A stretch of 61,002 nt of DNA from a virus (taxonomy: Duplodnaviria > Caudoviricetes): positions 1 through 61,002 of IMG/VR virus record IMGVR_UViG_3300010396_000049; one strand, given 5' to 3'. The notes beneath the pieces are model-generated. The model searched no databases and was not told the origin of the DNA. It saw only the letters and a program-made list of their open reading frames with translations. The translations under genes and the position numbers were made by a program. Below, one piece after another: positions 1-61,002 of the stretch. The number at the start of each line of letters is the position of its first letter. Position 1 is the stretch's first letter.

Positions 1-123
1 CATCTATCGAACCCCTTACATCATTCCTGCATTTTCACATAATTCATTAATTCTTAAACAAAAAGAGCTACTCGTAATAGAAGAAAAAAAGGGGCTTTCG
101 TTGAAAGTCCCTCAGGGTGGAGC
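1..123 (+). repeat. Exact terminal direct repeat (copy 1), most likely circular-assembly overlap
   Basis: 1-123 identical to 60880-61002; integrase reading frame runs continuously across it. Confidence 0.95.
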
Positions 124-190
124 CCAGGGGACTATAATCGAACCCCTAACCAATCTCCTCTCCTTCCTTCATTCTACTCGAGTGGCGTAG
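2..190 (+). CDS. C-terminal end of the serine integrase in the circular form (IYRTPYII...GGAQGTIIEPLTNLLSFLHSTRVA*)
   Basis: Same frame as 59483 ORF via the overlap. Confidence 0.85.
   Translation: MYRTPYIIPAFSHNSLILKQKELLVIEEKKGLSLKVPQGGAQGTIIEPLTNLLSFLHSTRVA
84..111 (-). terminator. Intrinsic terminator just downstream of the tRNA-like 3' end
   Basis: Minus strand GGGACTTTC-AAC-GAAAGCCCC followed by T7. Confidence 0.6.
116..147 (-). other. Putative attP resembling a tRNA-Ala/tmRNA 3' end
   Basis: Minus strand AGGGG-TTCGATTATAGT-CCCCT-GGGCTCC-A-CC: 5-bp T stem, T-loop expanded by 5 nt, acceptor 3' strand with U70, discriminator A; lies within the integrase 3' end. Confidence 0.7.
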
Positions 191-9316: not shown

Positions 9317-9440
9317 CGGACGGGTGTTGCCGATGTACCGGCAATAGCGTTTCGTCAGCTTGGTAAGTTAGATGAAGTTCTTAAATAGTACAACAGTTCA
9401 ATACAATTCCGTCAGCCGGTATATTGGCAACACAATGTTA
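9314..9440 (+). repeat. attC-like cassette site 1
   Basis: TAAC-6nt-GTGTTGCCGATGTACCGGC...GCCGGTATATTGGCAACAC-3nt-GTTA. Confidence 0.85.
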
Positions 9441-9465
9441 CCGGAAGGGCGGCAAATTATAGAAA

Positions 9466-10179
9466 ATGATGAATACAAATAAACCACTTGGCAAAAAGGC
9501 TTACGGCTCAATTCCGCATCTTCCAGGTTCAAGACTTGGACCCGGCGATTATTGCATAAGTGAAGGGCAGGCACGAATAGCAACCGAAAAGCCAAGAGAT
9601 AAGCACGACCTAATAATTGTGCAAGAAAAACTGGACGGTTCAAATGTAGCTATTGCCAAACTGGATGGTAAAATACTTGCCTTAACCAGGGCAGGATATT
9701 TGGCAAATACATCTCCTTTTAAACAGCATCATTTTTTTGCAAAATGGGTAGAAGAAAATAAAGCCAGATTTGTTGCTTTACTGAATGAAAAAGAAAGATT
9801 ATCAGGTGAATGGCTTGCAATGGCGCACGGAACACGTTACGATTTACCACATGAGCCGTTTGTTTGTTTTGATTTAATTACAGGAACCGAAAGAATTATT
9901 TATAAAAACTTTGAAGCAAGAGTAAGGAAACAGGATTTTATTATCCCAAATCTGCTTCACATTGGCGGCAGCTTTTCCATTGAAAGTATGATAAGGGCAA
10001 TTTCAAAAAGTGGACATGGTGCGATTGATGAAGTAGAGGGTGCAATTTGGCGTGTTGAAAGAAAAGAGAAAGTTGATTTTTTATGTAAATATGTTCATCA
10101 TAATAAACAGGATGGAAAATATTTTGAAGAAGTTACAGGTAAAGGTGAGGTTTGGAACTGTGATGTTTCTCGCTGGTAG
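9466..10179 (+). CDS. ATP-dependent RNA ligase-family adenylyltransferase (cassette 2)
   Basis: QEKLDGSN (motif I KxDG), GEW, FVCFD, EGAIWR, CKYV. Confidence 0.82.
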   Translation: MMNTNKPLGKKAYGSIPHLPGSRLGPGDYCISEGQARIATEKPRDKHDLIIVQEKLDGSNVAIAKLDGKILALTRAGYLANTSPFKQHHFFAKWVEENKARFVALLNEKERLSGEWLAMAHGTRYDLPHEPFVCFDLITGTERIIYKNFEARVRKQDFIIPNLLHIGGSFSIESMIRAISKSGHGAIDEVEGAIWRVERKEKVDFLCKYVHHNKQDGKYFEEVTGKGEVWNCDVSRW

Positions 10180-21718: not shown

Positions 21719-21722
21719 GAGG

Positions 21723-21758
21723 TAAAAATGCTGCATCAACCATGTTTTGAAAAGGACA
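21723..21758 (-). promoter_or_regulatory. Late-promoter motif upstream of tape measure
   Basis: TGTCCTTTT with CATTTTTA starting 28 nt later. Confidence 0.75.
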
Positions 21759-35043: not shown

Positions 35044-35690
35044 AAGAAGATGTAAAAAATGCGCTGCAGAAGCGCGCGGAAGAAGTAAACCGGCAGGCAG
35101 AATTTATCCTGGCTAAAACCCGCGATTGGCAAGTGATAAAACAATACATGAGCAATCGGGTTGCGGATATTGAACTGACACCTGAGCAGCAAAAGAAAAT
35201 GGAGCGGTACCAGTTTATTTATAATGAATTAGTAGGAGGCAAGAGCACTGATCAGCAGGTAGTGAACCTGGCGAAGAATTTCTTTAAAGTTTCTATTGCT
35301 CAGGCGTATGAAGATATCAAAGCAGCTAAGGAAGTTTTTACAGATGTTATTGACTTCGATAAACTTTTCGACCTAAATCTTTCGCTGCAGCTCAATACAA
35401 AATATAAAGCTAAAGCAGAAGAGATGGGAGACCTGAAAGCTCTGGCTATGTTTGAAAAAAACAGGAATGAGTTAAGAAAACAACTTCCGGATAAAGACGA
35501 TACTGATGTTGATCTGTTTAAAGGCCATATTTATGAAATGGTGTTTGACCCGAGCCTTTTAGGCGCGCCTACTAAAGTAGATATGAAAGAAATATTGACG
35601 GCCATTAATGCTAAACGAGGCAAGGCAATAAAACTGGATATGTTTGAAGAATTAAATTACGAAGACGTTCCGGAAGATGACAGTAATTAA
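35040..35690 (+). CDS. Hypothetical packaging protein (alternative TerS candidate)
   Basis: Helical, overlaps the TerL start. Confidence 0.55.
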   Translation: MKEDVKNALQKRAEEVNRQAEFILAKTRDWQVIKQYMSNRVADIELTPEQQKKMERYQFIYNELVGGKSTDQQVVNLAKNFFKVSIAQAYEDIKAAKEVFTDVIDFDKLFDLNLSLQLNTKYKAKAEEMGDLKALAMFEKNRNELRKQLPDKDDTDVDLFKGHIYEMVFDPSLLGAPTKVDMKEILTAINAKRGKAIKLDMFEELNYEDVPEDDSN

Positions 35691-37314
35691 AAAGCATTTT
35701 AATAAACCGCAGTTGCGTAGCATGGCAATTGATGCACCGACAGAAATAGCGGTGATGGGAAGAGGTACCGGTAAAACCGTAGGGATCCTTGCAAGAAAAT
35801 CAGCACAAAGATATTTTGGTACGATGCCCCGTGGAACCGGTGTGATATTGGGAGCCACTTATACGCAATTAGTATCGAGGACGCTTCCGGAATTGATTAA
35901 AGGTTATCAAATGCTGGGCTATGAAATGGACCATCATTTTGTTTTTGGAAAAAGGCCGACTGAAAAGTGGATGAAGAAATGGAAATGGAAGCAACCTTAC
36001 GCACCGCCTCTTGATTATAAATATGTGCTATCCTGGTGGAACAGCGCAGTTGCTAAATTGGTTAGCCAGGAAAGGCCCGGATCTTCAAACGGAATTTCAA
36101 TCGACTGGATTATCGGCGATGAGCTGAAGTACATCAATGAGCAAAAAATGAATACTGAATTGCTGCCCGCTAACCGGGGCATCATTCCGGAATTCAAAGG
36201 AAATATTTATCATCATGGAATGACCTTCACCACCGATATGCCGGTGGGCACCGGTGGCCGCTGGATTCTTGACAGAGAAAAAAAGATGGACCGGGATAAG
36301 GTGAATCAAATTTGGGAGATTCAAACAGTTAAGTTCCAACTAAACCATCTCCTGAAAAAAGAAACAAGGAAAGTTTTTCAGCAGGAATTGAAAAAACAGA
36401 TAGACGTACTCGAGGATGAAATGAATGATCTGAGACGTGGATTGTTATATTACCATGAAGCAAGCACGTTGGATAACATTCATGCGCTGGGTGCGGATTA
36501 TATTAAGCAACAATTGCGTGATACATCCGCTTTTCAGTTTGACACTCAAATATTAAACCTCAGGCCATTGAGATTGGAGGATGGATTCTATCCGGACTTT
36601 GATGAAGAGCTGCACGGCTACTTTGCAGAGAATGAAGATTACTTCAATAACCTGGAATATGACCCATTTAATATAGAACTTGATTGCAGGAAGGATAAGG
36701 ATTTGGATTCTAAAGCTCCACTGCATATCGCCTTGGATTATAATAGACGGATATGGCCGATCGTCACAGGGCAGGTTACAAAGAAAGAGATTCGGACCAT
36801 TAAAGGGGTTCATGTGTTGTATCCGCTCAAATTAAAAGATGCAGTACAGAAGTGGTGTGATTATTATAAGCCACATAAGAGGAGGCTGGTTTACTATTGG
36901 TACGATCATACAGCAGTAGGCGATATGCATGACACCCGGATGTGTGATGACGTGGTGGCGATATTGCGGAAGAATAAATTTGTGGTTCTCGAAATGTATA
37001 TTAGCCAACAACCAGGCCATGAAGAAAGGTACAGGATGTGGGGCGATCTATTAACCAATAGCGGCAAGTATGAGCAGTCTTATAAGATCAATCGTGAGAA
37101 CTGTGATAAGTTGATATTATCTAAGTGCCTGGCAGAAGCTGAGCAAAGGAAAGATGGCTTTGGTAAGAGTAAGAAGACAGAGCATGACCCTAAGTTCCCT
37201 GCAGATGAAAGTACGCACTACTCAGATGCGGAAGATACGTGGGTGTTTGGAGTGTTGGAGTCAGGGTTGTACAAAGGCTATGAAGATAAAGGAACAGGAG
37301 GTTTTATAATGTAG
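35677..37314 (+). CDS. terL: Terminase large subunit
   Basis: Walker A GRGTGKT, Walker B IIGDE, FTTDMP, nuclease acidic residues IALDYN and THYSDAED. Confidence 0.88.
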   Translation: MTVIKKHFNKPQLRSMAIDAPTEIAVMGRGTGKTVGILARKSAQRYFGTMPRGTGVILGATYTQLVSRTLPELIKGYQMLGYEMDHHFVFGKRPTEKWMKKWKWKQPYAPPLDYKYVLSWWNSAVAKLVSQERPGSSNGISIDWIIGDELKYINEQKMNTELLPANRGIIPEFKGNIYHHGMTFTTDMPVGTGGRWILDREKKMDRDKVNQIWEIQTVKFQLNHLLKKETRKVFQQELKKQIDVLEDEMNDLRRGLLYYHEASTLDNIHALGADYIKQQLRDTSAFQFDTQILNLRPLRLEDGFYPDFDEELHGYFAENEDYFNNLEYDPFNIELDCRKDKDLDSKAPLHIALDYNRRIWPIVTGQVTKKEIRTIKGVHVLYPLKLKDAVQKWCDYYKPHKRRLVYYWYDHTAVGDMHDTRMCDDVVAILRKNKFVVLEMYISQQPGHEERYRMWGDLLTNSGKYEQSYKINRENCDKLILSKCLAEAEQRKDGFGKSKKTEHDPKFPADESTHYSDAEDTWVFGVLESGLYKGYEDKGTGGFIM

Positions 37315-40179: not shown

Positions 40180-40497
40180 ATGAATTTAAAAAGGGCAGTA
40201 GAAATCATTGATGGCGGCGCCAGGCTAAAGAGCATCCGCTTCATTACCGCCGATATAAATAAAGGCAAAGGCGGCGAAGTAATTGAATTGCTCAATTGCA
40301 GGCTATCGCGCAAAGCTGACGCTCAACAGTCAACCGTCAACCGCGAACCATCAACCGCGAACGGCCAACCGTCAACCATCAACCGCGCACCCAACCACCA
40401 CTACCATTTCACCCGCAACCTTCTCCTGCCTAATAATCAAATCAGGAAAGTACACCCGCTTCTCGTAACCCATTTAAACCAGGAGGAAGTAATATGA
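40180..40497 (+). CDS. Hypothetical protein with internal TCAACCG heptamer insertion
   Basis: Heptamers at ~40323-40385 translated in frame. Confidence 0.65.
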   Translation: MNLKRAVEIIDGGARLKSIRFITADINKGKGGEVIELLNCRLSRKADAQQSTVNREPSTANGQPSTINRAPNHHYHFTRNLLLPNNQIRKVHPLLVTHLNQEEVI

Positions 40498-41954
40498 GCG
40501 TAACCATGGACGGCCCGGTAGCCTACCTGTCGGATAGCAAAAGTGCGGTTTACTTCTCCCGCGTAAATGCCAAAGCCGGCACTTACCAGGGCAAGAAAGG
40601 CGCAAAAGGCACCGCGCTACCCATACAGCAGCTTCAAAACGAGCTCGGCGTAGCCTTTTGGGGCGAAGACAACCGCTTTCCCCAAAATATAGAACAGCAA
40701 ATGGCGTATTGCGGCGTGGGTAAAGCCGGGCTGGATTGGAAAGCAAGGATGCTCTATGGCAACGGAATTATTCCCGGAAAAATTACCGATATCAAAGAAG
40801 ACGGTAGCGAAGTATTTACGCCTCTTAAAAGGGATGGCGCCGGCAAAGCTATTTATGATATCATTGAGCAGCGCTCCATGTTTCGTTTCTGGATGGAATT
40901 TTTACAGGATTGGTCCTGGTTTGGAAATTGTTTCCCTGAAATTATTTTTTCTAAAGATTGCACCAATATCACCGGCTTTGTTCACCAGGAAAGCTGCGAC
41001 AGCCGTTTTCAACAGATGGCTGATGATGGAAGTTTTTCTAAGGTTTACTTATCTAAAATGTGGGGCGCCAGCTCTGACCAATATGCAAAGTTCGACCCAA
41101 AGAAAAGAGTGCTTGGCCTCATAGACAATCCCAAGCTGGTGGATATGATTGATAAAAAATTCCTGAAAACGCTTGATTGTATTGATATGTACGATGCGCT
41201 AAACAGCGCTAAAGATATTGCTGACAGATTAAAAGGAAGCAAAGGTTTAAAATCTGCCACCCTTCCTGTCAATTATCCGAGCGTCAACAAAACCTATTAC
41301 CAGGTACCCACGTGGGATGGCGCGCGCCTCGCCGGCTGGGTAGAGATTGCCTCTAAAATTCCATCCCTCATAAAAACACTTTTTGCCAAAGCCTTTTCCA
41401 TTCGCTACCATATTGAAATTCCTAAAACTTATTTCGAAGACAAATTCGGCGCGGAAGTATGGGAAGGAATGACAGAACCCCAAAAGACAAAAGCAAAAAA
41501 AGATTTGTTGCAGGAAATGGATAAATTTTTATCCGGCTCCGAAAATGCTTTCAGGTCCTTCGTCTCTTATTTCGACGTGGCCAGGATGGGAAAAGAAGAA
41601 TATGGCCGCGTTAAAATCACCAATATCCCGGACAATTCTAACCTGGATAAAGAAATGATCACCCAGTCCGCAGCCGATTCACAAATCCTCGTTGCCATGG
41701 GCGTTAACCCATCACTCAGCGGCGCCGGAAAAATTGGTACCGGCCAGCAACGCAGTGGCGGCAGTGATCTCGTAGAAAATTATTTGATTTACTGTGCAGG
41801 CTTGAATTTGGAACGGCAGGTATTCCTTGAGCCGCTCTATCTCATGCGCGATTTCAACAAATGGGATTCTGATATCATTTTTCGTGTACGCGACACCGTA
41901 GTAAATAATATTTCCGCCGGCGACAAACCCACCACTAAAAAAACTGTAAACTAA
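40494..41954 (+). CDS. Portal protein
   Basis: WGEDNRFP, FGNCF, YYQVPTW, AMGVNPSL..G; 486 aa. Confidence 0.75.
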   Translation: MSVTMDGPVAYLSDSKSAVYFSRVNAKAGTYQGKKGAKGTALPIQQLQNELGVAFWGEDNRFPQNIEQQMAYCGVGKAGLDWKARMLYGNGIIPGKITDIKEDGSEVFTPLKRDGAGKAIYDIIEQRSMFRFWMEFLQDWSWFGNCFPEIIFSKDCTNITGFVHQESCDSRFQQMADDGSFSKVYLSKMWGASSDQYAKFDPKKRVLGLIDNPKLVDMIDKKFLKTLDCIDMYDALNSAKDIADRLKGSKGLKSATLPVNYPSVNKTYYQVPTWDGARLAGWVEIASKIPSLIKTLFAKAFSIRYHIEIPKTYFEDKFGAEVWEGMTEPQKTKAKKDLLQEMDKFLSGSENAFRSFVSYFDVARMGKEEYGRVKITNIPDNSNLDKEMITQSAADSQILVAMGVNPSLSGAGKIGTGQQRSGGSDLVENYLIYCAGLNLERQVFLEPLYLMRDFNKWDSDIIFRVRDTVVNNISAGDKPTTKKTVN

Positions 41955-43131: not shown

Positions 43132-45309
43132 ATGGCATTCGATCAAATAACAGGAACCAAAGCAACAGAACTCGATCCGTTCGTCGGCACCATACCCGAT
43201 GCGCAGCTCATTATTGTTCCAGATCCTGTTACCGGTGAATTATTTCGTACCACTTTCGGCCAGATAAAATCAGATATCATTGCCGCCTTCGGCCCCATTT
43301 CCTATTTGGATCCTATCGTAGAAGTTGACACCGTCGCCGATCTTCCGTCTCCGGGCGCACCGCGAACACTTTATGTCGTAACTATAGGTGTTCCGGAAAA
43401 TGATTATGCCGATGCCAATACACAATGGCGCTGGGCAGGAAGCATGTATATCGAATTTCCTCATGGAGGCACGGGCGATGTTTCAGGCGAAGCCATCATT
43501 CGGGGAAATGCTGATGCAGCCCTTCAGGCGAATATCAATGCAGAAGCTGCCGCCCGCGCCGCAGCCGCTACCGGGCTTCAAAATAATATTAATGCTGAAG
43601 CAACGGCGCGCGCCAATGCAGATAGTACTTTAACGAATAGCATTAATTCAGAAGCGAATACCCGCTCAAATAATGATGCCAGCCTTCTCGGCCTTATCAA
43701 TGGCGAAGGCGTTATTCGTGCCAATGCAGATAATGCCCTCCAGGCGAATATTGATGGAAAAGTGGATAAGGTAACCGGCATGGGCCTTTCATCCAATGAT
43801 TTTACTACCGATGAAAAAACAAAGCTCGCCGGCCTGGAAAGTTCCCGTTTTAAAGGAACTTTTGTAAATAAGGCCGCCTTAGACGCCGCCAACTTAGGCG
43901 GCGAAGGAAACTATGCTGATGTAGATGCAGGAGTTGGCGCCGACGTAGCCCGTTATATTTGGGACAATGACGATGATAAATGGGTATTGCAGCAAGGCGC
44001 CACCACATCCGAAACTGCCGCCTCCATTAAAACGAAATACGAAAGCAACCCTGATACGAATGCTTATACCGATGCCGAAAAAGCAAAGCTTTTAGGCATT
44101 GCCGCAGGTGCACAGGTAAACGATGCAGCCACAACCCTTCAGGGTAACTCCTTCAATGGCAATGCCCAATTGGTAAAAACTGATGCTGGTGGAAAGCTTC
44201 CCGCCATTGATGGCAGCCAACTTACTAATTTACCAGCCGGAGCAGTCAAAGCCACGGCCACCGAATTAAACACCGGTACAGATGATGCAAAATTTGCAAC
44301 AGCTTTAGGGCTTGAAAATTCAAAATACTTAAACCAATCCGGCAGCAAGATTTCTGCCACAGCAACCGGCACTGATACTTATGCAGCTACGATATCGCCA
44401 GCGATTACTGCCTATTCCAATACACAAAGATTTTTTATAAAGTTCACCAACGCGAATACCGGCGCCGCTACGCTTAACCTGAATTCACTGGGTGCAATTC
44501 CCTTAAAGAAAAACGTTTCCACAGCTCTTTCTGCCGGTGATATCGCCGCCGGGCAAATAGTTTGCGTGGCTTATGATGGCACCAATTTTCAAATCATTGG
44601 TGCGCCGGGAAGTTCTTCCGGTGGCGCTGGCGGCTCATCTGTTGGCGTTGCCTCCGGGACAAATACTTATGTTGTCGCCTGTACGCCACCAGTAACAGCA
44701 TTAACGGTAAATCTTTGTATCAGGGTTAAGTTTACTAATGGAAACACCGGTGCCTGTACCATTAATGTAGATGGCCTGGGAGCAATTGCAATTAATAAAG
44801 GCCCATCCACCGCATTAACTGCCGGAATCATTACCTCCGGGCAAATATTCGAACTATATTATGACGGCACGGTTTGGCAGTTAGGAAATACTCAGGCGAT
44901 TCCTTCAACTCCTAATAAGGTAATTACAACCGATGGCAGCGGAAACTTACAAGGAGTTAATGATTTAATTGATGTAAACAGCACAACAACTGAGGCTACA
45001 TTAATTGCCGCTACATGGAGTGCAGGCGTTGCCACAGCCACGGGCACACCAGGCACTTATGTTTTAGGGACAACAAGTAACTATTTCTATTTCTGCACTG
45101 GCACTAATACATGGATTCGAATTCCCGCCTATCTCGATTACTTGGATATATATCTCGGTTCTGTATCTGATAGCGGCGGCACAAAAACAAGCACTCAAAT
45201 GGCTGCATTATACCCTTCGGCAGTAAGAGGGCAATATGCGGTAGGCACCGCGGGAATGTATATGTACATGGGTTTAGTTGGCTGGTATTATTTCGCAAAC
45301 ACAATTTAA
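43132..45309 (+). CDS. Tail fibre / spike-like protein
   Basis: EA..RA.AD coiled-coil repeats, GLSSNDFTTDEKTKL, duplicated FTNANTGA.T.N module. Confidence 0.75.
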   Translation: MAFDQITGTKATELDPFVGTIPDAQLIIVPDPVTGELFRTTFGQIKSDIIAAFGPISYLDPIVEVDTVADLPSPGAPRTLYVVTIGVPENDYADANTQWRWAGSMYIEFPHGGTGDVSGEAIIRGNADAALQANINAEAAARAAAATGLQNNINAEATARANADSTLTNSINSEANTRSNNDASLLGLINGEGVIRANADNALQANIDGKVDKVTGMGLSSNDFTTDEKTKLAGLESSRFKGTFVNKAALDAANLGGEGNYADVDAGVGADVARYIWDNDDDKWVLQQGATTSETAASIKTKYESNPDTNAYTDAEKAKLLGIAAGAQVNDAATTLQGNSFNGNAQLVKTDAGGKLPAIDGSQLTNLPAGAVKATATELNTGTDDAKFATALGLENSKYLNQSGSKISATATGTDTYAATISPAITAYSNTQRFFIKFTNANTGAATLNLNSLGAIPLKKNVSTALSAGDIAAGQIVCVAYDGTNFQIIGAPGSSSGGAGGSSVGVASGTNTYVVACTPPVTALTVNLCIRVKFTNGNTGACTINVDGLGAIAINKGPSTALTAGIITSGQIFELYYDGTVWQLGNTQAIPSTPNKVITTDGSGNLQGVNDLIDVNSTTTEATLIAATWSAGVATATGTPGTYVLGTTSNYFYFCTGTNTWIRIPAYLDYLDIYLGSVSDSGGTKTSTQMAALYPSAVRGQYAVGTAGMYMYMGLVGWYYFANTI

Positions 45310-45312
45310 GAA

Positions 45313-46248
45313 ATGAATATAATTAAGACAGGAAGCAAGGTTTTAACGGTCGGCAACCATTTTATGCAGTTTGGGCGCACGCTTGCGTTTTTGAATGCAC
45401 AAAGTCCTATCACGACTGCGCAAGGGGGCTTTAGCTCCCCATTGTCCATTGCCATTGATTCGGCAAACGGTAGAATATTCGTAAGCAATAGCAACACAAT
45501 TTCTATTTTAGATTATACCAACCCAGCAGCAGGAAGCCCAACGGTAATTACACAATCAATGGGCTCGTTCAGCACAATTAGGGGCATAGCCATAGATGCA
45601 GCCAATAACAGAATATTTGTTTGTAACCAAGGAAACAACACCGTTTCAATTTTAAATTATACCAACCCAACGGCAGGAAGCCCAACGGTAATTAGTACAT
45701 CGCAGGGTAGCTTTAGCGCGCCTTACGGCATAGCCATAGATGCAGCCAATAACAGAATATTTGTTTGTAACCAAGGAAACAACACCGTTTCAATTTTAAA
45801 TTATACCAACCCAACAGCAGGAAGCCCAACGGTAGTTAGTACATCACAGGGTAGCTTTAATCAAATTGGGAGCATAGCCATAGATGCGGCCAATAACAGA
45901 ATTTTTGTTTGTAACCAAGGAAACAACACCGTTTCAATTTTAAATTATACCAACCCAACGGCAGGAAGCCCAACGGTAATTAGTACATCGCAGGGTAGCT
46001 TTAGTATATGTTCGTTTATCGCCATAGATGCAGCCAATAACAGAATATTTGTTTCTAACTACGGAAACAACACCGTTTCAATTTTAAATTATACCAACCC
46101 AACGGCAGGAAGCCCAACGGTAATTAGTACATCGCAGGGTAGCTTTAGCGGGCCTTTTGGCATCGCCTTAGACGCAGCCAATAGCAGAATATTTGTTTCT
46201 AATTACGGCAGCAACACCGTTTCAATCATCACAAACATTTTCACATAA
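45313..46248 (+). CDS. NHL/YVTN-type beta-propeller protein with 48-aa repeats (possible receptor-binding protein)
   Basis: Six IAIDAANNRIFV.N.GNNTVSIL units; 144-bp DNA period (45589, 45733, 45877, 46021). Confidence 0.8.
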   Translation: MNIIKTGSKVLTVGNHFMQFGRTLAFLNAQSPITTAQGGFSSPLSIAIDSANGRIFVSNSNTISILDYTNPAAGSPTVITQSMGSFSTIRGIAIDAANNRIFVCNQGNNTVSILNYTNPTAGSPTVISTSQGSFSAPYGIAIDAANNRIFVCNQGNNTVSILNYTNPTAGSPTVVSTSQGSFNQIGSIAIDAANNRIFVCNQGNNTVSILNYTNPTAGSPTVISTSQGSFSICSFIAIDAANNRIFVSNYGNNTVSILNYTNPTAGSPTVISTSQGSFSGPFGIALDAANSRIFVSNYGSNTVSIITNIFT

Positions 46249-46646
46249 TGACACTACAATTCTCCAACACACACATATTTTTTGCCCTCGAAGCCATCTG
46301 GGCGAACCTGGATTATAAATTTAAAAATGTAATTAACCAGCTTATAACGGCAAATAATGACGATAACTTTATGCAGTCACTCGAGATTTCGGAGGATATT
46401 TTAATACAAATATTCTCAACCGTTACCGTACTACCTGAAGGCGTGGCGGCTTCGATGAATGCCGAAATGCTCGCCGCTTTATCGCCACAAATAGCCGAAT
46501 TAAGCAATATCGCCGATGTACAGGCAGGCACCGCCGAGCCAAACGAATCCGCGAGGATTCAAATTGCGATAAATGATATTGATGTGGCAAACAAAGCAGT
46601 AAAAGCTGCAAAGATTTTAAACGGTAAAAATAAAATATTGGCATAA
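46248..46646 (+). CDS. Hypothetical protein
   Basis: TAATG-coupled ORF. Confidence 0.65.
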   Translation: MTLQFSNTHIFFALEAIWANLDYKFKNVINQLITANNDDNFMQSLEISEDILIQIFSTVTVLPEGVAASMNAEMLAALSPQIAELSNIADVQAGTAEPNESARIQIAINDIDVANKAVKAAKILNGKNKILA

Positions 46647-46716
46647 CTCACAACTCCTAACTCATAACTCACAACTCCTCACTCATCACTCCTCACTCCT
46701 AACTCATAACTCAAAA

Positions 46717-47115
46717 ATGAACCTCCTCCTCTATCTTATCTCATTCCTCCTCCGAACCCTCTTCGTCACAATAGGCATCATCTACGATATCTGTAAGATC
46801 TTCCGCTATTCCCATTTCGACAGGTCTTTCAAATACATCAATCAAAAATACAGGCGCCTCGCCATCCTGGTTGACCAGTTCGGCAACGCCGCCTGCCCGG
46901 AATTCTGGAACGATATCTTAATAAAAAAAGAAAGCGCCCACCCCTTTGGTATCTTAAATCAAACCATCAGCGCCGTCCTGGGATTAAATTACCAGGCCGG
47001 CACACTTACCAAAACAGGCCTATGGCTCAATAACGCCCTGAACTTCTTCTGGAAAGGCCATACCATCAAGGCTGCGGAGGAAATTAATGCCATTTCAATA
47101 TGTAACACCGGGTAG
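46717..47115 (+). CDS. Hypothetical membrane-associated protein
   Basis: Hydrophobic N-terminus, DQFGN...TISAVLG. Confidence 0.65.
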   Translation: MNLLLYLISFLLRTLFVTIGIIYDICKIFRYSHFDRSFKYINQKYRRLAILVDQFGNAACPEFWNDILIKKESAHPFGILNQTISAVLGLNYQAGTLTKTGLWLNNALNFFWKGHTIKAAEEINAISICNTG

Positions 47116-47235
47116 CAGGTATGAAATAAATTGTATAAAAAATGTAAAATAAAGTAGCAAAAATGCTACTTCATTATTAGTATGTATTACATTTGTCTTA
47201 CGATTATCTTATAAATAGTATGCTAATTATAAGAT

Positions 47236-47262
47236 AAAAAACCCCATCTGTCACGGATGGGG
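47236..47262 (-). terminator. Intrinsic terminator downstream of the tRNA-like RNA
   Basis: CCCCATCCG-TGA-CAGATGGGG followed by T6 on minus strand. Confidence 0.7.
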
Positions 47263-47305
47263 CGAAATTTAAGGGTATGGAGCCCTTGTTTTTACTTGAA
47301 TAAAA

Positions 47306-47375
47306 TGGACCCTGCCGGAATCGAACCAGCCTCACACGCTTGACTAGGGCAGAGAGGTCAACCAGATCAGGGCCC
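47306..47375 (-). ncRNA. 70-nt tRNA-like RNA resembling the tmRNA tRNA-like domain (no tag ORF)
   Basis: Acceptor GGGCCCU/AGGGUCC+A with G3:U70; stemless D region GAUCUGGUUGAC; T arm GCUGG-UUCGAUU-CCGGC. Confidence 0.7.
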
Positions 47376-47691
47376 GCAATTACTTAAACCGTTTGGCGAT
47401 AATTCGTTGAACGGTTTTTTATTTTGCAATATTAAACCAAAATTTTAGGTTTAAATTAATGGGAAGGCCTTAAACCCTACCAACCAAAACTAAATTCTTT
47501 TTCACTGAAACCAATGAAGAAAATATCAACAAAAAAAGGATAACTTTTTCTAGGTATTATCTACAATCAAAAATATCCCACCACAGCCAGCTTTTTGCAA
47601 CTTTACATGCCTCCCACTCATAACTCATAACTCATCACTCATAACTCAAAACTCATCACTCATAACTCATAACTCCTAACTCATAAAAGGC

Positions 47692-47727
47692 TGTCCTTTT
47701 ACTCTCCGCCCCCATTTCCCATTTTTG
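47692..47727 (+). promoter_or_regulatory. Late-promoter motif upstream of lysis operon
   Basis: TGTCCTTTT ... CATTTTTG at +28. Confidence 0.75.
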
Positions 47728-47753
47728 TTCTAAACAACCAATGAAAGAACCGA

Positions 47754-48068
47754 ATGCTCAAGCCAATCTTAAAATACATCGGGCAGCTAAAAACTGCCGA
47801 ACAAAGATTATTGGTCATTCTCCTTTTATCAGCGGTCATAGTTCTTTTTTCCTTGCTGCTGTCAGCTAACAAAAGCGCCGCTTACGAAGACAAGCGCCAG
47901 ATAGAAATATTGCAGCATACGCTTGATTCGACCAGCCGTGCCGACCGCAAAGAGTTAGATGCCTGCAAGGATCAAAACTTTCGCGACAAATTAGACCGTA
48001 TAGCAGAGCTTGAAAAATATGCGCATCAGCAAGATTCTTTAATCGAACAATTAAGAAAAATAAAATGA
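47754..48068 (+). CDS. Membrane-anchored coiled-coil protein (lysis module)
   Basis: One TM segment followed by coiled coil. Confidence 0.6.
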   Translation: MLKPILKYIGQLKTAEQRLLVILLLSAVIVLFSLLLSANKSAAYEDKRQIEILQHTLDSTSRADRKELDACKDQNFRDKLDRIAELEKYAHQQDSLIEQLRKIK

Positions 48069-48490
48069 AAAACCTCTTTATAATATTAATCCTGTCCGTT
48101 TTCATCTTTTGGCCTCAGGTGCAGGGCCCCGCGCAGCCTACTTCCCCCACTTCTTCAGGAGACGGGATGAAGCTGGCTCGTTCGAAGGATTCCATTGCTC
48201 ATCTCAATAAAAAAATAGAATCAAAATTTGACAGCATCACTTCAGAGATCAACCGCATTAAGAACCGGCCTGCCCGATATATAACGCGCACGCACATACG
48301 CAAAGTGAACCATTACCGCATAGACACGGTGCTTGTATTTATTGATACCTGCTTTAACCAGCCACAGATAGATACAGCTTATTTAATGCCTGAAATAAAA
48401 CCGGAACCCCCGAAAAGAACCTGGTTAAAAAGGCTTTTACACCACAAAAAAAAACCACGCGAAAATTATTTAAAAATAGTTGAGCAATAA
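48065..48490 (+). CDS. Signal-anchored hypothetical protein (lysis module)
   Basis: N-terminal hydrophobic segment. Confidence 0.6.
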   Translation: MKNLFIILILSVFIFWPQVQGPAQPTSPTSSGDGMKLARSKDSIAHLNKKIESKFDSITSEINRIKNRPARYITRTHIRKVNHYRIDTVLVFIDTCFNQPQIDTAYLMPEIKPEPPKRTWLKRLLHHKKKPRENYLKIVEQ

Positions 48491-48571
48491 CTCATCACTC
48501 ATCACTCATCACTCATAACTCATAACCCATAACTCATACCTCCTAACTCATCACTCCTAACTCCAAAAAAA

Positions 48572-48814
48572 ATGCTTAAAGAATTAAAAGAAAGATACCA
48601 CGCGGAAACGCCGGTCTGGTTTAAAAAAATACGGAGAGCCAGCCTCGCTTTATCAGGGCTTGGCGTCTCTTTGTTAACCCTCAGCGCCACGGTAAACAGT
48701 TTCGTTTTGCCTGACTTTTTACATACGCTTTGCACCTGGTTTGTAATTGCCGGCACAAGCGTCGCAGCCGTCAGCACCACCGCAAAAAAAGATCCTAATG
48801 AAAAAGATATTTAA
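48572..48814 (+). CDS. Holin-like protein
   Basis: 80 aa, two TM segments, ETPVWFKKI motif, next to endolysin. Confidence 0.65.
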   Translation: MLKELKERYHAETPVWFKKIRRASLALSGLGVSLLTLSATVNSFVLPDFLHTLCTWFVIAGTSVAAVSTTAKKDPNEKDI

Positions 48815-49352
48815 CCTTAGGCCTTCTGCCTTCTGCTTTCTGCTTTCAGCGTTTTGCCTGCTGCTTTTCACTTTATGTAGCTGCTCCTCGTCAAAAAAGG
48901 CAGTAAATATCAACAAGGCCCACACCGACAGCAGCGTCGTTGAGCACGCGCAAAAAAACTTTTCTTCTATCAAAGACAGCATCAGCACCAGGACAGCCAA
49001 TTTTAATTATAAAAAGGAAATAAAAAACACCATGCAGCCTGTTGTAATTGATAACGATGATTCTGTTCCCCCGGGCATTGTGGTTATTACCAATAAGAAA
49101 ACCGGGGGAAAAAAAATTTTTCTCCCGTCCAAAACGATTACCGAATGGGGCAATATTGCTGCCAGCGATCAGGTTCAACTGAGGCAAAAAGTAGATTCTT
49201 CAGTAAACCAACAAAAAAGCACAAATCTTATTTCCGAAAAAAAAACAATCGTAAAACAAAAGGAAAAATCAGGCCTCAGTTTTTTTAACCTGCTTTGGCT
49301 TCTCCTGCTAATACCCGCTTATATAATCTATAAAAAAATTAAGAACCTATGA
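48798..49352 (+). CDS. Lipoprotein with C-terminal TM helix (unimolecular-spanin topology)
   Basis: Lipobox-like LCSC, C-terminal FFNLLWLLLLIPAYII-KKIK. Confidence 0.65.
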   Translation: MKKIFNLRPSAFCFLLSAFCLLLFTLCSCSSSKKAVNINKAHTDSSVVEHAQKNFSSIKDSISTRTANFNYKKEIKNTMQPVVIDNDDSVPPGIVVITNKKTGGKKIFLPSKTITEWGNIAASDQVQLRQKVDSSVNQQKSTNLISEKKTIVKQKEKSGLSFFNLLWLLLLIPAYIIYKKIKNL

Positions 49353-49930
49353 CACCGCAACAGCAGCACCAGCAGCTTTTTGATACGCTTGAAATCCTTC
49401 CGCAAATAACAAAAGGAAATTCGATAATCATTAGCAACGTCCCGGCCATCATCGAAAGAAAAGTGGCAACTATGCGAAGCAACAAAAACCGCTACGAAGA
49501 AGTATCCCACCGCTTTGTCAATCCCGGGTTAAAATGGTGGCTCGTAGCGCTTATTCATGAAATGGAATGTACTCAGAATTTTAATTGTTACCTGGGCAAT
49601 GGCCAGCCTCTGAATAAAAAAACAACTATCGTTCCTGCAGGCCGCGGCCCATTTGCCACGTTCGCCGATGGTGCCGTAGACGCCTTAAAATTGCAACGCG
49701 CTGATCAGATAACAGACTGGAGCCTAGGCAACGTTCTGTATTTTCTCGAAGGATATAACGGTTATGGTTATTCTAAATATCACAATATTAATTCACCATA
49801 CCTGTGGAGCGGTTCTAATCACTATATTTCTGGCAAATATGTTTCTGATGGAAACTATGATCCTGATGCCGTCAGTTCCCAAATTGGCATTGCCCTTTTA
49901 ATGAAAAGTTTGCTACAACAAGGCGCATAA
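49349..49930 (+). CDS. Lysozyme-family endolysin (COG5526-like)
   Basis: IHEME, LGNGQPL, VPAGRGPF, LEGYNGYGY, SPYLWSG, GKYVSDG. Confidence 0.85.
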   Translation: MTPQQQHQQLFDTLEILPQITKGNSIIISNVPAIIERKVATMRSNKNRYEEVSHRFVNPGLKWWLVALIHEMECTQNFNCYLGNGQPLNKKTTIVPAGRGPFATFADGAVDALKLQRADQITDWSLGNVLYFLEGYNGYGYSKYHNINSPYLWSGSNHYISGKYVSDGNYDPDAVSSQIGIALLMKSLLQQGA

Positions 49931-49973
49931 TGAGATTATCATTAACCAAATAAAAACCCTATAAACTCATAAA

Positions 49974-50075
49974 ATGAAAAAAATTTTAGAAAACACATTA
50001 GCCTACATGACGCTTGCTTACCTGTTGGCTATAATTGCCGCAATAGTGTATTGTATTTCGCAGGCTAAATTGTAA
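49974..50075 (+). CDS. 33-aa hydrophobic peptide
   Basis: MKKILENTLAYMTLAYLLAIIAAIVYCISQAKL* (hand translation). Confidence 0.4.
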   Translation: MKKILENTLAYMTLAYLLAIIAAIVYCISQAKL

Positions 50076-50227
50076 AAGTTAGTTGGATTTTTCTTCGAAT
50101 ATACGGCGCTGTGTTTCCACACTGGCGCCTTCTCTTTTATCTATCCATGCTTTTATCAACTCATAACCCATAACCCATAACTCATAACTCAAAACTCCTA
50201 ACTCATAACTCCTAACTCATAAAAGGC

Positions 50228-50263
50228 TGTCCTTTTACTTCAAACCAAAATAAACCATTTTTA
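50228..50263 (+). promoter_or_regulatory. Late-promoter motif upstream of a short non-coding unit
   Basis: TGTCCTTTT ... CATTTTTA at +28. Confidence 0.7.
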
Positions 50264-50369
50264 TTCTATGAAACCTAATTTAAAATAACCCCAAAGCCAT
50301 TTCCTCCTTTTCACCTGGCTTTAATAAATGTTTTTCCCTATGAAAAACAGGTGACTCATCCACACCAAT

Positions 50370-50396
50370 CGCCCCGGTATCTACCGGGGCTTTTTT
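50370..50396 (+). terminator. Intrinsic terminator
   Basis: GCCCCGGTA-TC-TACCGGGGC followed by T6. Confidence 0.75.
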
Positions 50397-50442
50397 CCGG
50401 CCGGTACCGCAGGCCAGGCCGGTAAAAATAAAAACCACGCAA

Positions 50443-50604
50443 ATGAAATACCAAATTACTTTTTACTATCACAGCGACCCGCATAAACTAACCCATCTCA
50501 AAACCATCTCCGCAAAAAATTACGGCGATGCTTACAACAAATTCTTTGACGAAATAAAGGAGCAGGTATTTTTGTTGGAGATACATGAAGAAACAAATCT
50601 TTAA
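50443..50604 (+). CDS. 53-aa hypothetical protein
   Basis: MKYQITFYYHSD...ETNL* (hand translation). Confidence 0.45.
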   Translation: MKYQITFYYHSDPHKLTHLKTISAKNYGDAYNKFFDEIKEQVFLLEIHEETNL

Positions 50605-50682
50605 CTCATACCTCATACCTCATAACTCATAACTCATAACTCATAACTCATAACTCCTAACTCATAACTCCTAATTTCCCCC

Positions 50683-50718
50683 TGTCCTTTTGCCGCCACT
50701 CCGCTAACGCTACTTTAG
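50683..50718 (+). promoter_or_regulatory. Late-promoter motif upstream of tail-completion operon
   Basis: TGTCCTTTT ... TACTTTAG at +28. Confidence 0.75.
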
Positions 50719-59370: not shown

Positions 59371-59583
59371 ATGAAAAACCTGGCAACCATACGAACCATG
59401 AATTCAGCGATGCTGTTAACCCCCGGAGAAAAAAGAATTGTAGATTTGATTTCTACTGCAATCATTAAAAAAACTTTCAAAAATGAAAAAAGGAATCCGC
59501 TATTTGCGCTTCAGCAAAGACAAACAAAGTGTGTTAAGCATAGAGAGGCAAGATCTGGTAACAAGCCTGTGGATGAATCATAA
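59371..59583 (+). CDS. Small protein overlapping integrase start
   Basis: ORF adjacent to integrase; function unknown. Confidence 0.4.
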   Translation: MKNLATIRTMNSAMLLTPGEKRIVDLISTAIIKKTFKNEKRNPLFALQQRQTKCVKHREARSGNKPVDES

Positions 59584-61002
59584 TGGCATAGAAATTTTTG
59601 ACACTTTCATCGACGATGGCTATTCGGCAAAAACTTTTGACCGTCCTGATATGAAAAATTTGATGCTTTTTGTAAAGAAAAATTACCGGGAAATTGATTA
59701 CCTCGTGGTCGCAGAGCTCACGCGCTTCAGCCGTGATTTAGGTGATGCCGTTAACCTGGTGAAGAGCATTCAAAAAGCTTATGATATCAGAATTGTAAGT
59801 GCCAGCCGCGGCGCCATCTACGATTGCAGCGATAGCAATTCATTTTTCATGATGTCTTTGGAATTCCTACTTGGCAATTCCGAAAACCTGAAACGCGAAA
59901 GCGATATTAACGGCGGCATATATACCGCAAAAGCAAAAGAAGGAAGGTACATCCATGGGCAACCTCCATATGGGTATTTTAAAGATGGTACCGGAGCAAC
60001 ATCACGGTTATGCATAGACGAAGAAAAGGCAAAAGTGGTTCGTTACATATTTTCAGCTTACTTAAAAAATGTTCCTTTCCTAATCATCTATGAGGAAGCA
60101 AAAAAAATAGGCTTTCCTCATAAGGGCCACGGAGCCATCCAGAAGATCCTCAGCAACCCGCTTTATTCTGCGCAGCAAATGGTAAAGCCCTGGCGCGAGC
60201 ATCCGGGAGGATTGTTCCCGGCGCTTCATCAACCGATCGTCGACATGATCACCTGGAAAGACGCGCAGGTGAAACTGAAAAATAAAAGCCGCCCGGGAAT
60301 ATCTATCTCTGATGAAATGCCTTTGCGTGGCGTCTTACGCTGCCATTGCTCACAACCGGTAACGGGGGCACCGAGCCGCAACCGTTGGAGCAATTATTAT
60401 TACTATTACAAATGCAAGCACAGCCGCCACGTAAATATTTCCGTAATAAAAGCGCATGAGAAGCTCATCGCAGCCTTAAGTTATATGAGCCTTACGGACA
60501 GGATGGCCTATGCAATTCAAATCAGCAGTGAGCAAAAATTTGATGAACAGGTAAAAGAAAACCGAAAAATACTGGCGAAGAAAAAAACAGAGCTCGAAGA
60601 AATTCACGATCGTATCGAGAGCCTCGAAGAAAAATACCTGGCCAACAAAATCGAATTTGAAACTTACAACAAATGGTTTAGTGAGCTACGCCAGCGCCGC
60701 ACCATCACCAGGGCGCATATAGATCAGTTACAACGTGATGACAGCAGCTTATACCTGCTGATGCAAAACAACATTGAGCAGTTCACCGACCTGCCCTATG
60801 TATATAAAAATTTAGAAACAGCAGCAAAGCAGGAATTTATAAGAATAGTGTTCGACAGCAAACTCTACTGGAGAGACAACATCTATCGAACCCCTTACAT
60901 CATTCCTGCATTTTCACATAATTCATTAATTCTTAAACAAAAAGAGCTACTCGTAATAGAAGAAAAAAAGGGGCTTTCGTTGAAAGTCCCTCAGGGTGGA
61001 GC
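59483..61002 (+). CDS. Large serine recombinase (integrase); continues across the junction to TAG at 188-190 (~528 aa)
   Basis: Hand translation: MKKGIRYLRFSKDKQ (YxRxS catalytic motif), DDGYSAKTFDRP, LTRFSRD, PPYGY recombinase domain, LRGVLRCHC...YYYYKC zinc ribbon, coiled coil; absent from the ORF track because it lacks a stop before the window end. Confidence 0.93.
   Translation, partial: MKKGIRYLRFSKDKQSVLSIERQDLVTSLWMNHNGIEIFDTFIDDGYSAKTFDRPDMKNLMLFVKKNYREIDYLVVAELTRFSRDLGDAVNLVKSIQKAYDIRIVSASRGAIYDCSDSNSFFMMSLEFLLGNSENLKRESDINGGIYTAKAKEGRYIHGQPPYGYFKDGTGATSRLCIDEEKAKVVRYIFSAYLKNVPFLIIYEEAKKIGFPHKGHGAIQKILSNPLYSAQQMVKPWREHPGGLFPALHQPIVDMITWKDAQVKLKNKSRPGISISDEMPLRGVLRCHCSQPVTGAPSRNRWSNYYYYYKCKHSRHVNISVIKAHEKLIAALSYMSLTDRMAYAIQISSEQKFDEQVKENRKILAKKKTELEEIHDRIESLEEKYLANKIEFETYNKWFSELRQRRTITRAHIDQLQRDDSSLYLLMQNNIEQFTDLPYVYKNLETAAKQEFIRIVFDSKLYWRDNIYRTPYIIPAFSHNSLILKQKELLVIEEKKGLSLKVPQGG
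60880..61002 (+). repeat. Exact terminal direct repeat (copy 2)
   Basis: Identical to 1-123. Confidence 0.95.

Follow-up and report, generated by a model that had tools for sequence, protein, structure and literature searches.

The conserved core of a tRNA comprises U8, A14, G18 G19, U33, a purine at position 37 and T54 psi55 C56. In D-arm-reduced mitochondrial tRNAs and in mascRNA (RF01684), the latter of which is not known to be aminoacylated, the acceptor/T-arm minihelix is kept and the other half of the molecule has shrunk. For alanine, Hou and Schimmel are said to have found in 1988 that G3:U70, G2:C71 and A73 suffice for recognition by alanyl-tRNA synthetase (AlaRS), even on minihelices and tmRNA. 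Phages and viruses also carry RNAs reduced to the tRNA-like domain (TLD) of tmRNA, namely the TLD-only tmRNA of phage DS6A (JN698994, 28478-28560) and a 90-nt mini tmRNA on a viral contig (L043, 418-507). PMC4131195 describes the TLD-only RNA of DS6A and a similar molecule reported to inhibit tmRNA, perhaps by titrating SmpB.

The tRNA-like element described here lies in the window, by which we mean the whole 61,002-nt sequence of a soil phage that was analysed (IMG/VR record IMGVR_UViG_3300010396_000049). Its 70 nt were read directly from the minus strand at positions 47306-47375, and element position i corresponds to window position 47376 - i. The 5' strand of the acceptor stem (positions 1-7, 47369-47375) pairs with 47307-47313 through seven base pairs, G1-C72, G2-C71, the wobble G3.U70, three C-G pairs and U7-A66, and is completed by the discriminator A at 47306, so that all three AlaRS determinants, G3:U70, G2:C71 and A73, are present. 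Next comes a 12-nt D-like region (positions 8-19, 47357-47368), which contains GG, has UUGAC as its last letters and forms no canonical D stem. RNAalifold draws a mini hairpin of three pairs in it (8-19, 10-18 and 11-17, with the loop UGGUU). The middle hairpin of 26 nt (positions 20-45, 47331-47356) consists of three pairs, a bulged U42 and five further positions, one of which is a C-U mismatch, followed by a loop region with the anticodon-like 7-nt loop CUAGUCA. This hairpin was obtained from relaxed ARAGORN, the model search, RNAalifold and a pair-by-pair comparison with the homologue described below. It stands where a tRNA would have its D stem, anticodon stem and variable loop, and it adjoins the T stem without a linker. 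The T arm (positions 46-62, 47314-47330) has a five-pair stem, including one U.G, and the loop UUCGAUU. CCA is not encoded, and TTTT directly follows the discriminator; CCA is likewise unencoded in most of the tmRNA genes of Bacteroidota, the phylum of the host, and in the one tRNA-Ala gene that we read. The exact sequence GGTTCGATTCC occurs a single time in the window.

A preliminary description of this locus had proposed a seven-pair acceptor stem with G3:U70 and A73, a canonical T arm and a stemless D region ending in UUGAC. All of these are borne out, and the minus strand at 47306-47375 matches its sequence exactly. Where it saw only an irregular stem in the middle of the molecule, the element has a conserved hairpin of eight pairs whose 7-nt loop is anticodon-like.

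A model (R1) derived solely from the window copy found one homologue, L203, at 56 bits and with no non-canonical pair, while the next best matches scored 18-29 bits. L203 lies on a bacterial chromosomal contig, among housekeeping genes. Across 61 Bacteroidota genomes, the best match per genome to the ParA protein of this contig has 44-55% identity, which is not decisive for the phylum. On a second model, R2, the ordinary tRNAs and other tRNA-like sequences searched reach at most 41.7 bits. The features that define the family in R1 and R2 are the G3:U70 acceptor, UCUGGUUGAC in the D-like region, an eight-pair hairpin with a bulged U and the absence of a linker before the T arm, and the window element and L203 share them all.

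The preliminary description had named covariation among homologues as a check on its proposal. In the comparison with L203 all three helices are kept, with 39 of 40 cells paired, and 9 of the 20 pairs differ on both sides between the two copies. Slid alignments gave one to three such pairs, and a single shuffle in 500 reached the observed value. In the acceptor all seven pairs are kept, and pair 7:66 has changed from U-A to G-C. The middle hairpin has changed on both sides in five of its eight pairs, with the bulged U and five of the seven loop letters conserved, and the T arm in three of its five stem pairs, with all seven loop letters identical. Outside the helices the unpaired D region (10/10 letters) and the discriminator are also identical. 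Unpaired differences are confined to loop positions 34 and 36 and a single letter missing at position 9. The pairs of the RNAalifold mini hairpin are invariant, so the comparison neither supports nor rejects them. The alignment was model-guided and fitted to a structure proposed with both sequences in view; MAFFT put a one-letter gap at the 5' end that misaligned the acceptor stem. RNAalifold independently recovers the same helices for the two copies. The pattern of changes points to an RNA structure under selection, read here from two sequences, which are too few for selection statistics.

The family is a rare one. A blastn search against 50,697 phage records returned only short T-arm matches. 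In the viral contig collection, a pattern of the exact D region and T loop had no matches in one form, and a second D region and T loop pattern hit 71 loci that were mostly ordinary phage tRNAs. None of the matches listed for a third pattern (at least 118 stretches) and none of the 16 stretches found with a fourth was tRNA-like. A fifth matched at least 120 stretches, of which 14 passed the filter; these were mostly tRNA-like with a D stem, and none among the matches listed was element-like. The sixth matched at least 119 stretches, which among the matches listed were tRNA-Ala genes, phage tmRNA 3' ends and two short alanine-type tRNA-like sequences. When R2 was run on 100 of these loci, the best score was 41.7 bits, similar to ordinary tRNA-Ala. 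Among cellular sequences, a pattern scan of the genome contig collection gave at least 120 stretches, none of them tRNA-like among the matches listed, and a pattern scan of 401 Bacteroidota genomes had no matches. Model R2 had three matches in 150 Bacteroidota genomes, all ordinary tRNA-Val or tRNA-Met, and none in 150 genomes from the order of genome G009. A 62-nt tRNA-like piece in a 277-kb phage contig (L026/L061) was dropped as a candidate member, as it aligned poorly and scored 24.8 bits. A full-text literature search returned no paper describing a family of the window element and L203. The two copies form a rare family of non-canonical tRNA-like small RNAs with two members so far, one in this phage and one in a bacterial chromosome.

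How readily such a sequence arises by chance depends on the descriptor. A loose one, allowing any TTCRANN loop, a 5-bp T stem, a 7-bp acceptor, G-U pairs and a spacer of 25-59, occurs in 25 of 200 dinucleotide shuffles and is weak by itself. With the canonical GGTTCRANTCC T-arm core, the descriptor was found in none of 1000 shuffles, and the element is its sole match in the window.

The element sits in a 638-bp gap (47116-47753) between two plus-strand ORFs. No ORF of 50 aa or more lies wholly inside the gap, and a minus-strand ORF (47699-47872) enters its far end. The neighbouring protein, encoded at 46717-47115, has no relatives in the viral contig collection. On the minus strand, 51 nt upstream of position 1, TAATATTG (47427-47434) is a one-off match to the Bacteroidota -7 promoter motif TAnnTTTG and may be a weak promoter; a sigma-70 promoter scan found none at 47427-47434. 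Between this motif and the RNA, a terminator scan identified a 14-pair hairpin (47386-47417) that is followed by a T run on the plus strand and could therefore stop plus-strand read-through. A second hairpin, of seven pairs (47270-47288), lies just 3' of the RNA and is terminator-like on the plus strand. A strong intrinsic terminator-like site on the minus strand (47235-47263), with eight pairs, five of them G-C, at 47241-47263 and then TTTTTT, starts 43 nt downstream of the RNA, and terminator-type Rfam models align weakly to it. In all, seven terminator-like sites were found between 46600 and 48100, where 1.3 were expected. These flanks agree with the preliminary description, which had listed a -7-like motif and a hairpin upstream and a hairpin and a terminator downstream. 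As the promoter matches the consensus only in part, the separate transcription unit that would run from it to the terminator is a putative one.

Judged by its sequence and its pairing, the element is a genuine tRNA-derived structured RNA that carries the full acceptor-stem alanine identity set, which it has in common with canonical tRNA-Ala. The role that we tentatively favour, with rather less than even confidence, is that of a non-standard mimic of an alanine tRNA, one that could be charged but would not decode as ordinary tRNAs do. For its expression, processing, charging and partner we infer the following course. Transcription would start at the element's own weak promoter and end at its own terminator, the 5' end would be cut by RNase P, and the 3' end would be trimmed and receive CCA. 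AlaRS would then charge it with alanine, because this enzyme reads only the acceptor stem. The product could compete for, or serve, factors that read tRNA-Ala or tmRNA by its acceptor/T-arm half, and the SmpB/tmRNA rescue pathway would be the most specific candidate partner, given the ties of this phage lineage to ssrA.

Elongator tRNAs (RF00005), tRNA-Ala among them, resemble the element in the T arm and T loop, the GG of the D region, a 7-nt loop with U33 and the approximate length. They differ in having a four-pair D stem, U8, A14 and a variable loop, all missing from the element, which for its part has C37 and a bulged middle helix. In a cloverleaf test its acceptor and T arms were normal, the D arm had at most three pairs, all invariant, and the middle helix had eight pairs and a bulge. 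The GG, U33 and T loop of the conserved core are present, while position 8 is G, position 37 is C and A14 has no counterpart. The element is as close to a shrunken cloverleaf as it is to a TLD. It also has the reduced layout of the D-arm-reduced mitochondrial tRNAs and mascRNA, and the best Rfam score of L203 is to mascRNA-menRNA (29.5 bits, E-value of 9e-4, below the cut-off of 42.5). This likeness is one of analogy and not of homology; those RNAs are eukaryotic or organellar.

ARAGORN, which the preliminary description had suggested as a check, reported no gene at the element with default settings. With its score threshold lowered to 80%, it called a tRNA-Thr(AGU) here and a tRNA-Ser(tga) in L203. 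The relaxed calls bring in a different reading, in which the element is an unorthodox decoding tRNA and the middle hairpin an extended anticodon arm, with the anticodon AGU here and UGA in L203. Since G3:U70 would set the identity, threonine codons (ACU) would receive alanine here and serine codons (UCA) in the case of L203, amounting to deliberate mistranslation or recoding. Bacterial tRNAs built for mistranslation do exist, in the tRNA-ProX family. Both copies are drawn as cloverleaves with 7-nt loops of the form CU-NNN-CA, and positions 34 and 36 are the sole unpaired substitutions between them. That the loop keeps C32, U33 and A38 while 34 and 36 differ is the pattern expected of decoding tRNAs with different anticodons, and it counts against a mimic. 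The eight to nine layers of the hairpin approximate the length of a stacked D stem and anticodon stem. Moreover, an alanine-acceptor tRNA-like gene on another phage contig (L546), to which ARAGORN assigns the four-base anticodon 'ctag', shares the 9-mer GCCCUAGUC in its anticodon loop.

Several features of the element nevertheless speak against decoding. To our knowledge, decoding tRNAs almost never carry a C at position 37, and an unmodified A34, the base found here, is unusual in bacteria. U8, a variable loop and a normal D arm are missing, and the anticodon stem of the phage copy has Watson-Crick pairs at two of five positions and a mismatched closing pair. Default ARAGORN and the Rfam tRNA model RF00005 (no match at E <= 10) both reject the element as a tRNA. 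Under code 11 the long ORFs of the phage are read without trouble and call for no recoding. Taken together, we consider a decoding role unlikely.

The alanine tRNA mimic that we favour must also be weighed against decay, that is, against a tRNA- or tmRNA-derived pseudogene that came from a host and is nonfunctional in the phage. The single-sequence folding energy is unremarkable (z = -1.08), with 25 of 200 shuffles folding equally well, and a competing UUGAC/GUCAA hairpin is equal in energy (-20.8 vs -20.4 kcal/mol). The middle helix of the phage copy is weaker than that of L203, having one C-U mismatch, two G-U pairs and a C-A closing pair. Together with the competing hairpin, this makes some decay possible. 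Model R2 had no match in five related phage records, one of them 99% complete, so the element is dispensable for this phage type, and its surroundings are a variable cassette region. Against a pseudogene, no damage is seen in the acceptor stem, the T arm with its loop or the D region, the stem changes relative to L203 keep pairing in all but one cell, and the terminator and flanking hairpins are retained. A 61-kb phage genome would also seldom keep dead DNA for long in a 638-bp gap. A decaying tRNA would make the finding an ordinary one; we regard it as quite improbable.

The preliminary description had gone further than a tRNA mimic and read the element as a mimic of the tmRNA TLD, serving as an SmpB decoy or as a tag-less ribosome-rescue RNA. 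This is a narrower version of the explanation that we favour, and part of the structure fits it. As in a TLD, the acceptor has seven pairs with G3:U70 and a discriminator A, and a canonical D stem is missing. With UCUGGUUGAC, the D region looks like the D loop of certain Bacteroidota tmRNAs, such as UUCUGGUUUUGAC in L344. A P2a-like helix of eight pairs begins immediately behind GAC, runs as far as the T stem and is kept in L203. DS6A offers a precedent, and the phage group has ties to ssrA. The DS6A and L043 RNAs and the window RNA are all phage-borne, 70-90 nt long and equipped with G3:U70 and a canonical T arm. All three are without a D stem, a tag reading frame and pseudoknots, and a short helix replaces the body.

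The specific signature of a TLD is nonetheless missing. All 29 Bacteroidota tmRNAs compared have GGAC immediately ahead of the T stem, whereas the window element has GAG at this place and L203 has CUU. DS6A and L043 keep AC directly before the T stem, and L043 also has GGUUUCGAC. The same 29 tmRNAs all start with GGGG, while position 4 of the element is C. From GG to GAC the D region has two letters, compared to three to five in most of the 29 tmRNAs, and the RNAalifold mini hairpin pairs part of it. C4, a shorter D loop and the anticodon-like 7-nt loop also set the window RNA apart from DS6A and L043. A search with Infernal tmRNA models, another of the checks suggested earlier, turned out negative. 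The best score of the element in the tRNA/tmRNA clan is 16.9 bits (tRNA-Sec), and a search of the window's own record with the tmRNA model RF00023 did not report it. On that model L203 scores 15.4 bits, ordinary tRNA-sized stretches of 75-85 nt score 15.9-34.6 bits, and the TLD-only RNAs of DS6A and L043 reach 43.2 and 65.2 bits. The element is therefore not a faithful tmRNA TLD and, with this signature absent, SmpB may not bind it. A homologue in a bacterial chromosome is in addition a poor fit with a purely anti-host decoy and argues for a cellular function. In its strict form, the TLD reading thus appears quite doubtful on the sequence evidence.

Integration of the phage at ssrA, which the preliminary description had raised as a possibility, gains support from places other than the element. 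An imperfect stretch resembling the 3' end of ssrA lies at about 100-146 of the window, on the minus strand, and adjoins a large serine recombinase gene that extends from 59483 through the terminal repeat to window position 190 and is the only recombinase found. Three related phages show three ties to tmRNA. One relative (G002) is a provirus at ssrA, with its recombinase end abutting a real tmRNA 3' end (RF00023, 61.9 bits), a second (G001) carries a permuted tmRNA-like gene (RF04321, 62.5 bits), and the window phage has both the ssrA-like stretch and the mini tRNA. Even though tRNA and tmRNA genes are common targets and relatives are proviruses, one abutting ssrA, it is highly improbable that the element itself is an attP, or what is left of one, by which the phage would integrate into a tRNA-like or tmRNA gene. 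The element contains both acceptor strands and is a complete folded unit instead of a 3' piece. The only recombinase found is about 12 kb away, and the ssrA-3'-end-like stretch at that gene is a separate one. A scan of 66 window ORFs against Pfam and/or PHROGs revealed no tyrosine integrase.

A possible wider kinship of the alanine tRNA mimic is suggested by a 74-nt alanine-identity family on phage contigs of about 100 kb (L025, L201, L202 and L204-L206). It shares with the window element G3:U70, A73 and the UCUGGUUGAC motif closed by a GUC/GAC stem, as well as a hairpin directly after GAC and a canonical T arm that only a very short linker separates from it. ARAGORN made no call on the three copies that were run. 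Unlike the window element, these RNAs have a 15-nt D-like loop, a hairpin of four to five pairs, a UU linker before the T arm and loops without U33, the last of which speaks for a non-standard decoder in RNAs of similar layout. They score only 18-29 bits on the window model, and their likeness to the window element is one of layout.

Together with L203, and perhaps with the 74-nt family, the window RNA could represent a new class of alanine-accepting mini tRNAs without a D stem, found in bacteria and phages and dedicated to a job other than normal decoding, although we give this broad proposal little credence. Possible jobs would be to modulate or bypass tmRNA-SmpB rescue in phages that insert at ssrA, or to place alanine deliberately at non-alanine codons. 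A charged element that binds to SmpB, EF-Tu or a defence nuclease would give a simple example of how a temperate phage can use RNA mimicry, and its bacterial homologue would in that case point to a cellular use of such RNAs. Phage tRNA look-alikes that standard detectors miss may be a hidden layer of the contest over host translation and ribosome rescue. The phage also encodes an RNA ligase, a hint of tRNA damage and repair.

The element occupies 47306-47375 on the minus strand of the window, within a 638-bp gap between two plus-strand ORFs, and its letters are identical to those in the preliminary description. Reading the sequence, we found the acceptor of seven pairs including G3.U70 with discriminator A, the T arm with a five-pair stem and the loop UUCGAUU, and the 12-nt D-like region that ends in UUGAC and has no D stem, all as first described. 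The middle of the RNA is 26 nt long, and no CCA is encoded. Hairpins are present on both sides, as had also been noted. The proposal that the RNA has its own transcription unit held in part: a strong terminator-like site lies downstream (47241-47263, minus strand), while we could only infer the promoter, because the upstream TAATATTG matches the Bacteroidota -7 motif only in part.

A loose tRNA-like descriptor was found in 25 of 200 shuffles, and a descriptor with the canonical T-arm core in none of 1000; the folding energy of the RNA by itself was unremarkable (z = -1.08). The RNA is not a chance match, and the original observation is confirmed. Default ARAGORN over the window called neither a tRNA nor a tmRNA, and with a lowered threshold it drew the RNA as a poor cloverleaf, tRNA-Thr(agt). 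Rfam at permissive settings gave nothing significant on 47150-47550, where the top match in the tRNA/tmRNA clan was tRNA-Sec (16.9 bits, E 1.1). The RNA was also not reported in searches of the record with the Rfam tRNA model (RF00005) or tmRNA model (RF00023), the latter an Infernal comparison proposed in the preliminary description.

Pattern scans of viral, metagenome and genome collections gave one convincing homologue among the matches listed, the 69-nt locus L203 (5796-5864, minus strand) on a 7,494-bp metagenome contig. This contig, a fragment of a bacterial chromosome, encodes ParB, ParA, FolD, a PAP2 phosphatase, a TsaC/Sua5 protein, ribosomal protein S16, an IS200-like protein, RNase III and NusB, and has no protein in common with the window. 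When a covariance model (R1) was made with the proposed structure and no sequence but the window copy, it matched L203 at 56 bits, and all modelled pairs were canonical in L203 in that alignment. Over the two RNAs, 39 of 40 cells were paired. The helices are kept, and both partners differ in 9 of 20 pairs (acceptor stem 1, middle helix 5, T stem 3), a count from two sequences only, in a structure derived with both in view and an alignment fitted to that structure. Sliding the partners by 1-3 columns gave 1-3 double-changed pairs, and the observed covariation value was reached in 1 of 500 shufflings. RNAalifold, unaided, returned the same three helices and an extra three-pair mini hairpin in the D region, whose pairs are invariant between both copies. 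The middle regions aligned gap-free, and the D motif UCUGGUUGAC, T loop, bulged U and discriminator do not differ at all. Outside the pairs, substitutions occur only at the first and third letters of the loop triplet (AGU in the window, UGA in L203), and L203 is short of one letter, at position 9. Judged from its sequence, the window RNA is a genuine, non-canonical tRNA-like RNA of alanine identity, with a conserved structure.

Tentatively, and at somewhat less than an even chance, we favour a tRNA mimic that does not decode in the normal way. It would be processed and could be charged by AlaRS, and SmpB/tmRNA would be its most specific candidate partner. A 74-nt alanine-identity tRNA-like family was found in phage contigs of about 50-103 kb (minus strand: L025 1235-1308, L201 77-150, L202 10371-10444 and L206 580-653; plus strand: L204 496-569 and L205 3777-3850). 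Its lay-out is similar to that of the window RNA: G3:U70, UCUGGUUGAC enclosed by a GUC/GAC stem, a hairpin that follows GAC directly, and a canonical T arm. The GUC/GAC stem closes a 15-nt loop with the letters UCUGGUU, and U33 is absent from the loops of the family. One pair of the hairpin covaries, and ARAGORN called none of the copies in L025, L201 and L204. Judging from this family, tRNA mimics of the alanine type that do not decode seem to recur among phages. Two further phage contigs carry 67-nt alanine-acceptor tRNA-like genes with normal D arms and shortened anticodon arms (L546 1481-1547 and L533 7730-7796, both minus strand). The 8-nt loop of the L546 gene is read by ARAGORN as a four-base anticodon, 'ctag', and the 9-mer GCCCUAGUC is common to this gene and the window RNA.

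An unorthodox decoder that inserts alanine is an unlikely alternative to this mimic, although the RNA has a normal acceptor and a normal T arm, C32, U33 and A38 are present in its loop, and the middle helix approximates the length of the stacked D and anticodon stems of a tRNA. Unlike a tRNA, the window RNA is without U8, a proper D arm or a variable loop, and position 37 is C; by these features it is not a standard tRNA. Among Rfam models, L203 scored highest with that of mascRNA, a small RNA of tRNA-like form (29.5 bits, under the cut-off), and this likeness describes the shape of the RNA well. Rather more doubtful is a decaying pseudogene. In its favour, the upper helix of the phage copy contains a C-U mismatch and two G-U pairs and is closed by C-A, and a UUGAC/GUCAA hairpin of equal energy competes with the fold (-20.8 vs -20.4 kcal/mol); against it stands the structure retained in L203.

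Equally doubtful is the strict form of the mimic reading, a decoy of the type of the tmRNA tRNA-like domain (TLD). The window RNA carries the alanine identity set, lacks a D stem as the TLD does, has a D motif close to some Bacteroidota tmRNAs (e.g., UUCUGGUUUUGAC in L344), and starts its helix directly after GAC, like P2a. However, all 29 Bacteroidota tmRNAs fetched begin GGGG and have GGAC immediately 5' of the T stem, whereas the window RNA begins GGGC, with C at position 4, and has GAG before the T stem. True TLD-only RNAs are recognised by the tmRNA model, with 43.2 bits for the element of phage DS6A (JN698994 28478-28560) and 65.2 bits on RF00023 for a 90-nt mini tmRNA (L043 418-507, plus strand), whereas the window RNA reaches at most 16.9 bits in the clan and L203 15.4 bits. 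The mini tmRNA lies in a viral contig of 5.5 kb and consists of a TLD and a short helix, with CCA encoded; with it, the DS6A type has two examples. Stretches of tRNA size (75-85 nt) from three Bacteroidota genomes scored 15.9-34.6 bits on the tmRNA model; the one that we read, at 33.5 bits, is a tRNA-Ala-like gene. Because GGGG and GGAC are missing and the tmRNA-model scores are too low, the window RNA is, as far as its letters tell, not a member of the TLD family, contrary to the preliminary description, although it may act like a TLD all the same.

That the window RNA is itself attP is highly improbable, as the likely attachment region is ~12 kb away. There, at window ~100-146 (minus strand, opposite the recombinase gene 3' end), an imperfect ssrA-3'-end-like stretch comprises T-stem halves, the T-loop start and GCTCCACC, with five extra letters in the loop; a half copy lies at 5-15 (= 60884-60894). 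This stretch is probably attP for integration into a host tmRNA gene. In the related provirus G002, the recombinase (49083-50606) is 48% identical to that of the window, and its gene end adjoins, convergently and on the opposite strand, the 3' end of a genuine tmRNA gene (L612 1584-1656, the end of G002; minus strand; RF00023, 61.9 bits), which is cut off by the record end. The T-arm half has a second copy near G002 3442. The arrangement suggests that a serine recombinase inserted the provirus into ssrA. The earlier suggestion that the phage may integrate at ssrA gains support from the stretch and this provirus, not from the window RNA.

The closest complete relative, G001, carries within the prophage a tmRNA-like gene of the permuted, two-piece type (L611 1668-1837, or G001 about 9404-9573; plus strand), matching positions 1-133 of 213 of RF04321 at 62.5 bits (cut-off 47). 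The gene has a Bacteroidota-type TLD, with a terminator at about L611 1917-1945; ARAGORN made no call on it, and none of the proteins that flank it matches the window. Permuted tmRNA genes have, to our knowledge, been described in proteobacteria and cyanobacteria alone. A possible short reading frame, noted by eye downstream in L611, has three alanine codons at its end. Given G002 at ssrA, the ssrA-like stretch and the putative permuted gene, this phage group has several connections to tmRNA, which raises the prior for a link between the window RNA and ribosome rescue. Many viral contigs among the matches listed have tmRNA-type 3' ends, in which GGAC precedes a canonical T arm and the acceptor strand closes with GGGTCCA, judged by eye except at L536 9458-9824, where ARAGORN predicts a full tmRNA with tag DEEQYFQAAA. 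Phage-borne tmRNAs seem far commoner than the ten listed in a 2014 survey.

In five phage records with related portals (55-62% identity), the window RNA was absent by BLAST, by ARAGORN (loci only) and by R2, the model of the window element and L203 (0/5). Synteny with related phages is confined to the portal block, and the cassette at window 43132-50700 is variable. A search of 401 Bacteroidota genomes for the exact pattern was negative. In 150 Bacteroidota genomes the matches to R2 were all ordinary tRNAs, and in 150 genomes of the order of record G009 there were none.

The record is a complete virus of 61,002 bp with direct terminal repeats of 123 bp. Protein-family matches identified a portal protein (40494-41954), tail proteins, a tape-measure-like protein (17528-21739, minus strand), a ClpP-type protease, a helix-turn-helix regulator and a large serine recombinase that starts at 59483 and runs through the terminal repeat to 190. 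The sole Rfam match above gathering score was the Flavo-1 motif (RF01705; 37323-37395, minus strand; 53.7 bits, cut-off 42), which follows directly after a 545-aa ORF (35677-37314). From this motif and the tmRNA types seen in relatives, we infer a Bacteroidota host. A predicted RNA ligase (9466-10179; PF09414, E 4e-17; phrog_548) may point to the repair of tRNAs or other RNA after cleavage; we recognised no polynucleotide kinase in its vicinity. Between the window RNA and the next gene lies a tandem array of 10.1 copies of a 7-bp unit (47616-47686; ACTCATA on the plus strand; 87% matches), which may be a protein-binding array or origin-like iterons.
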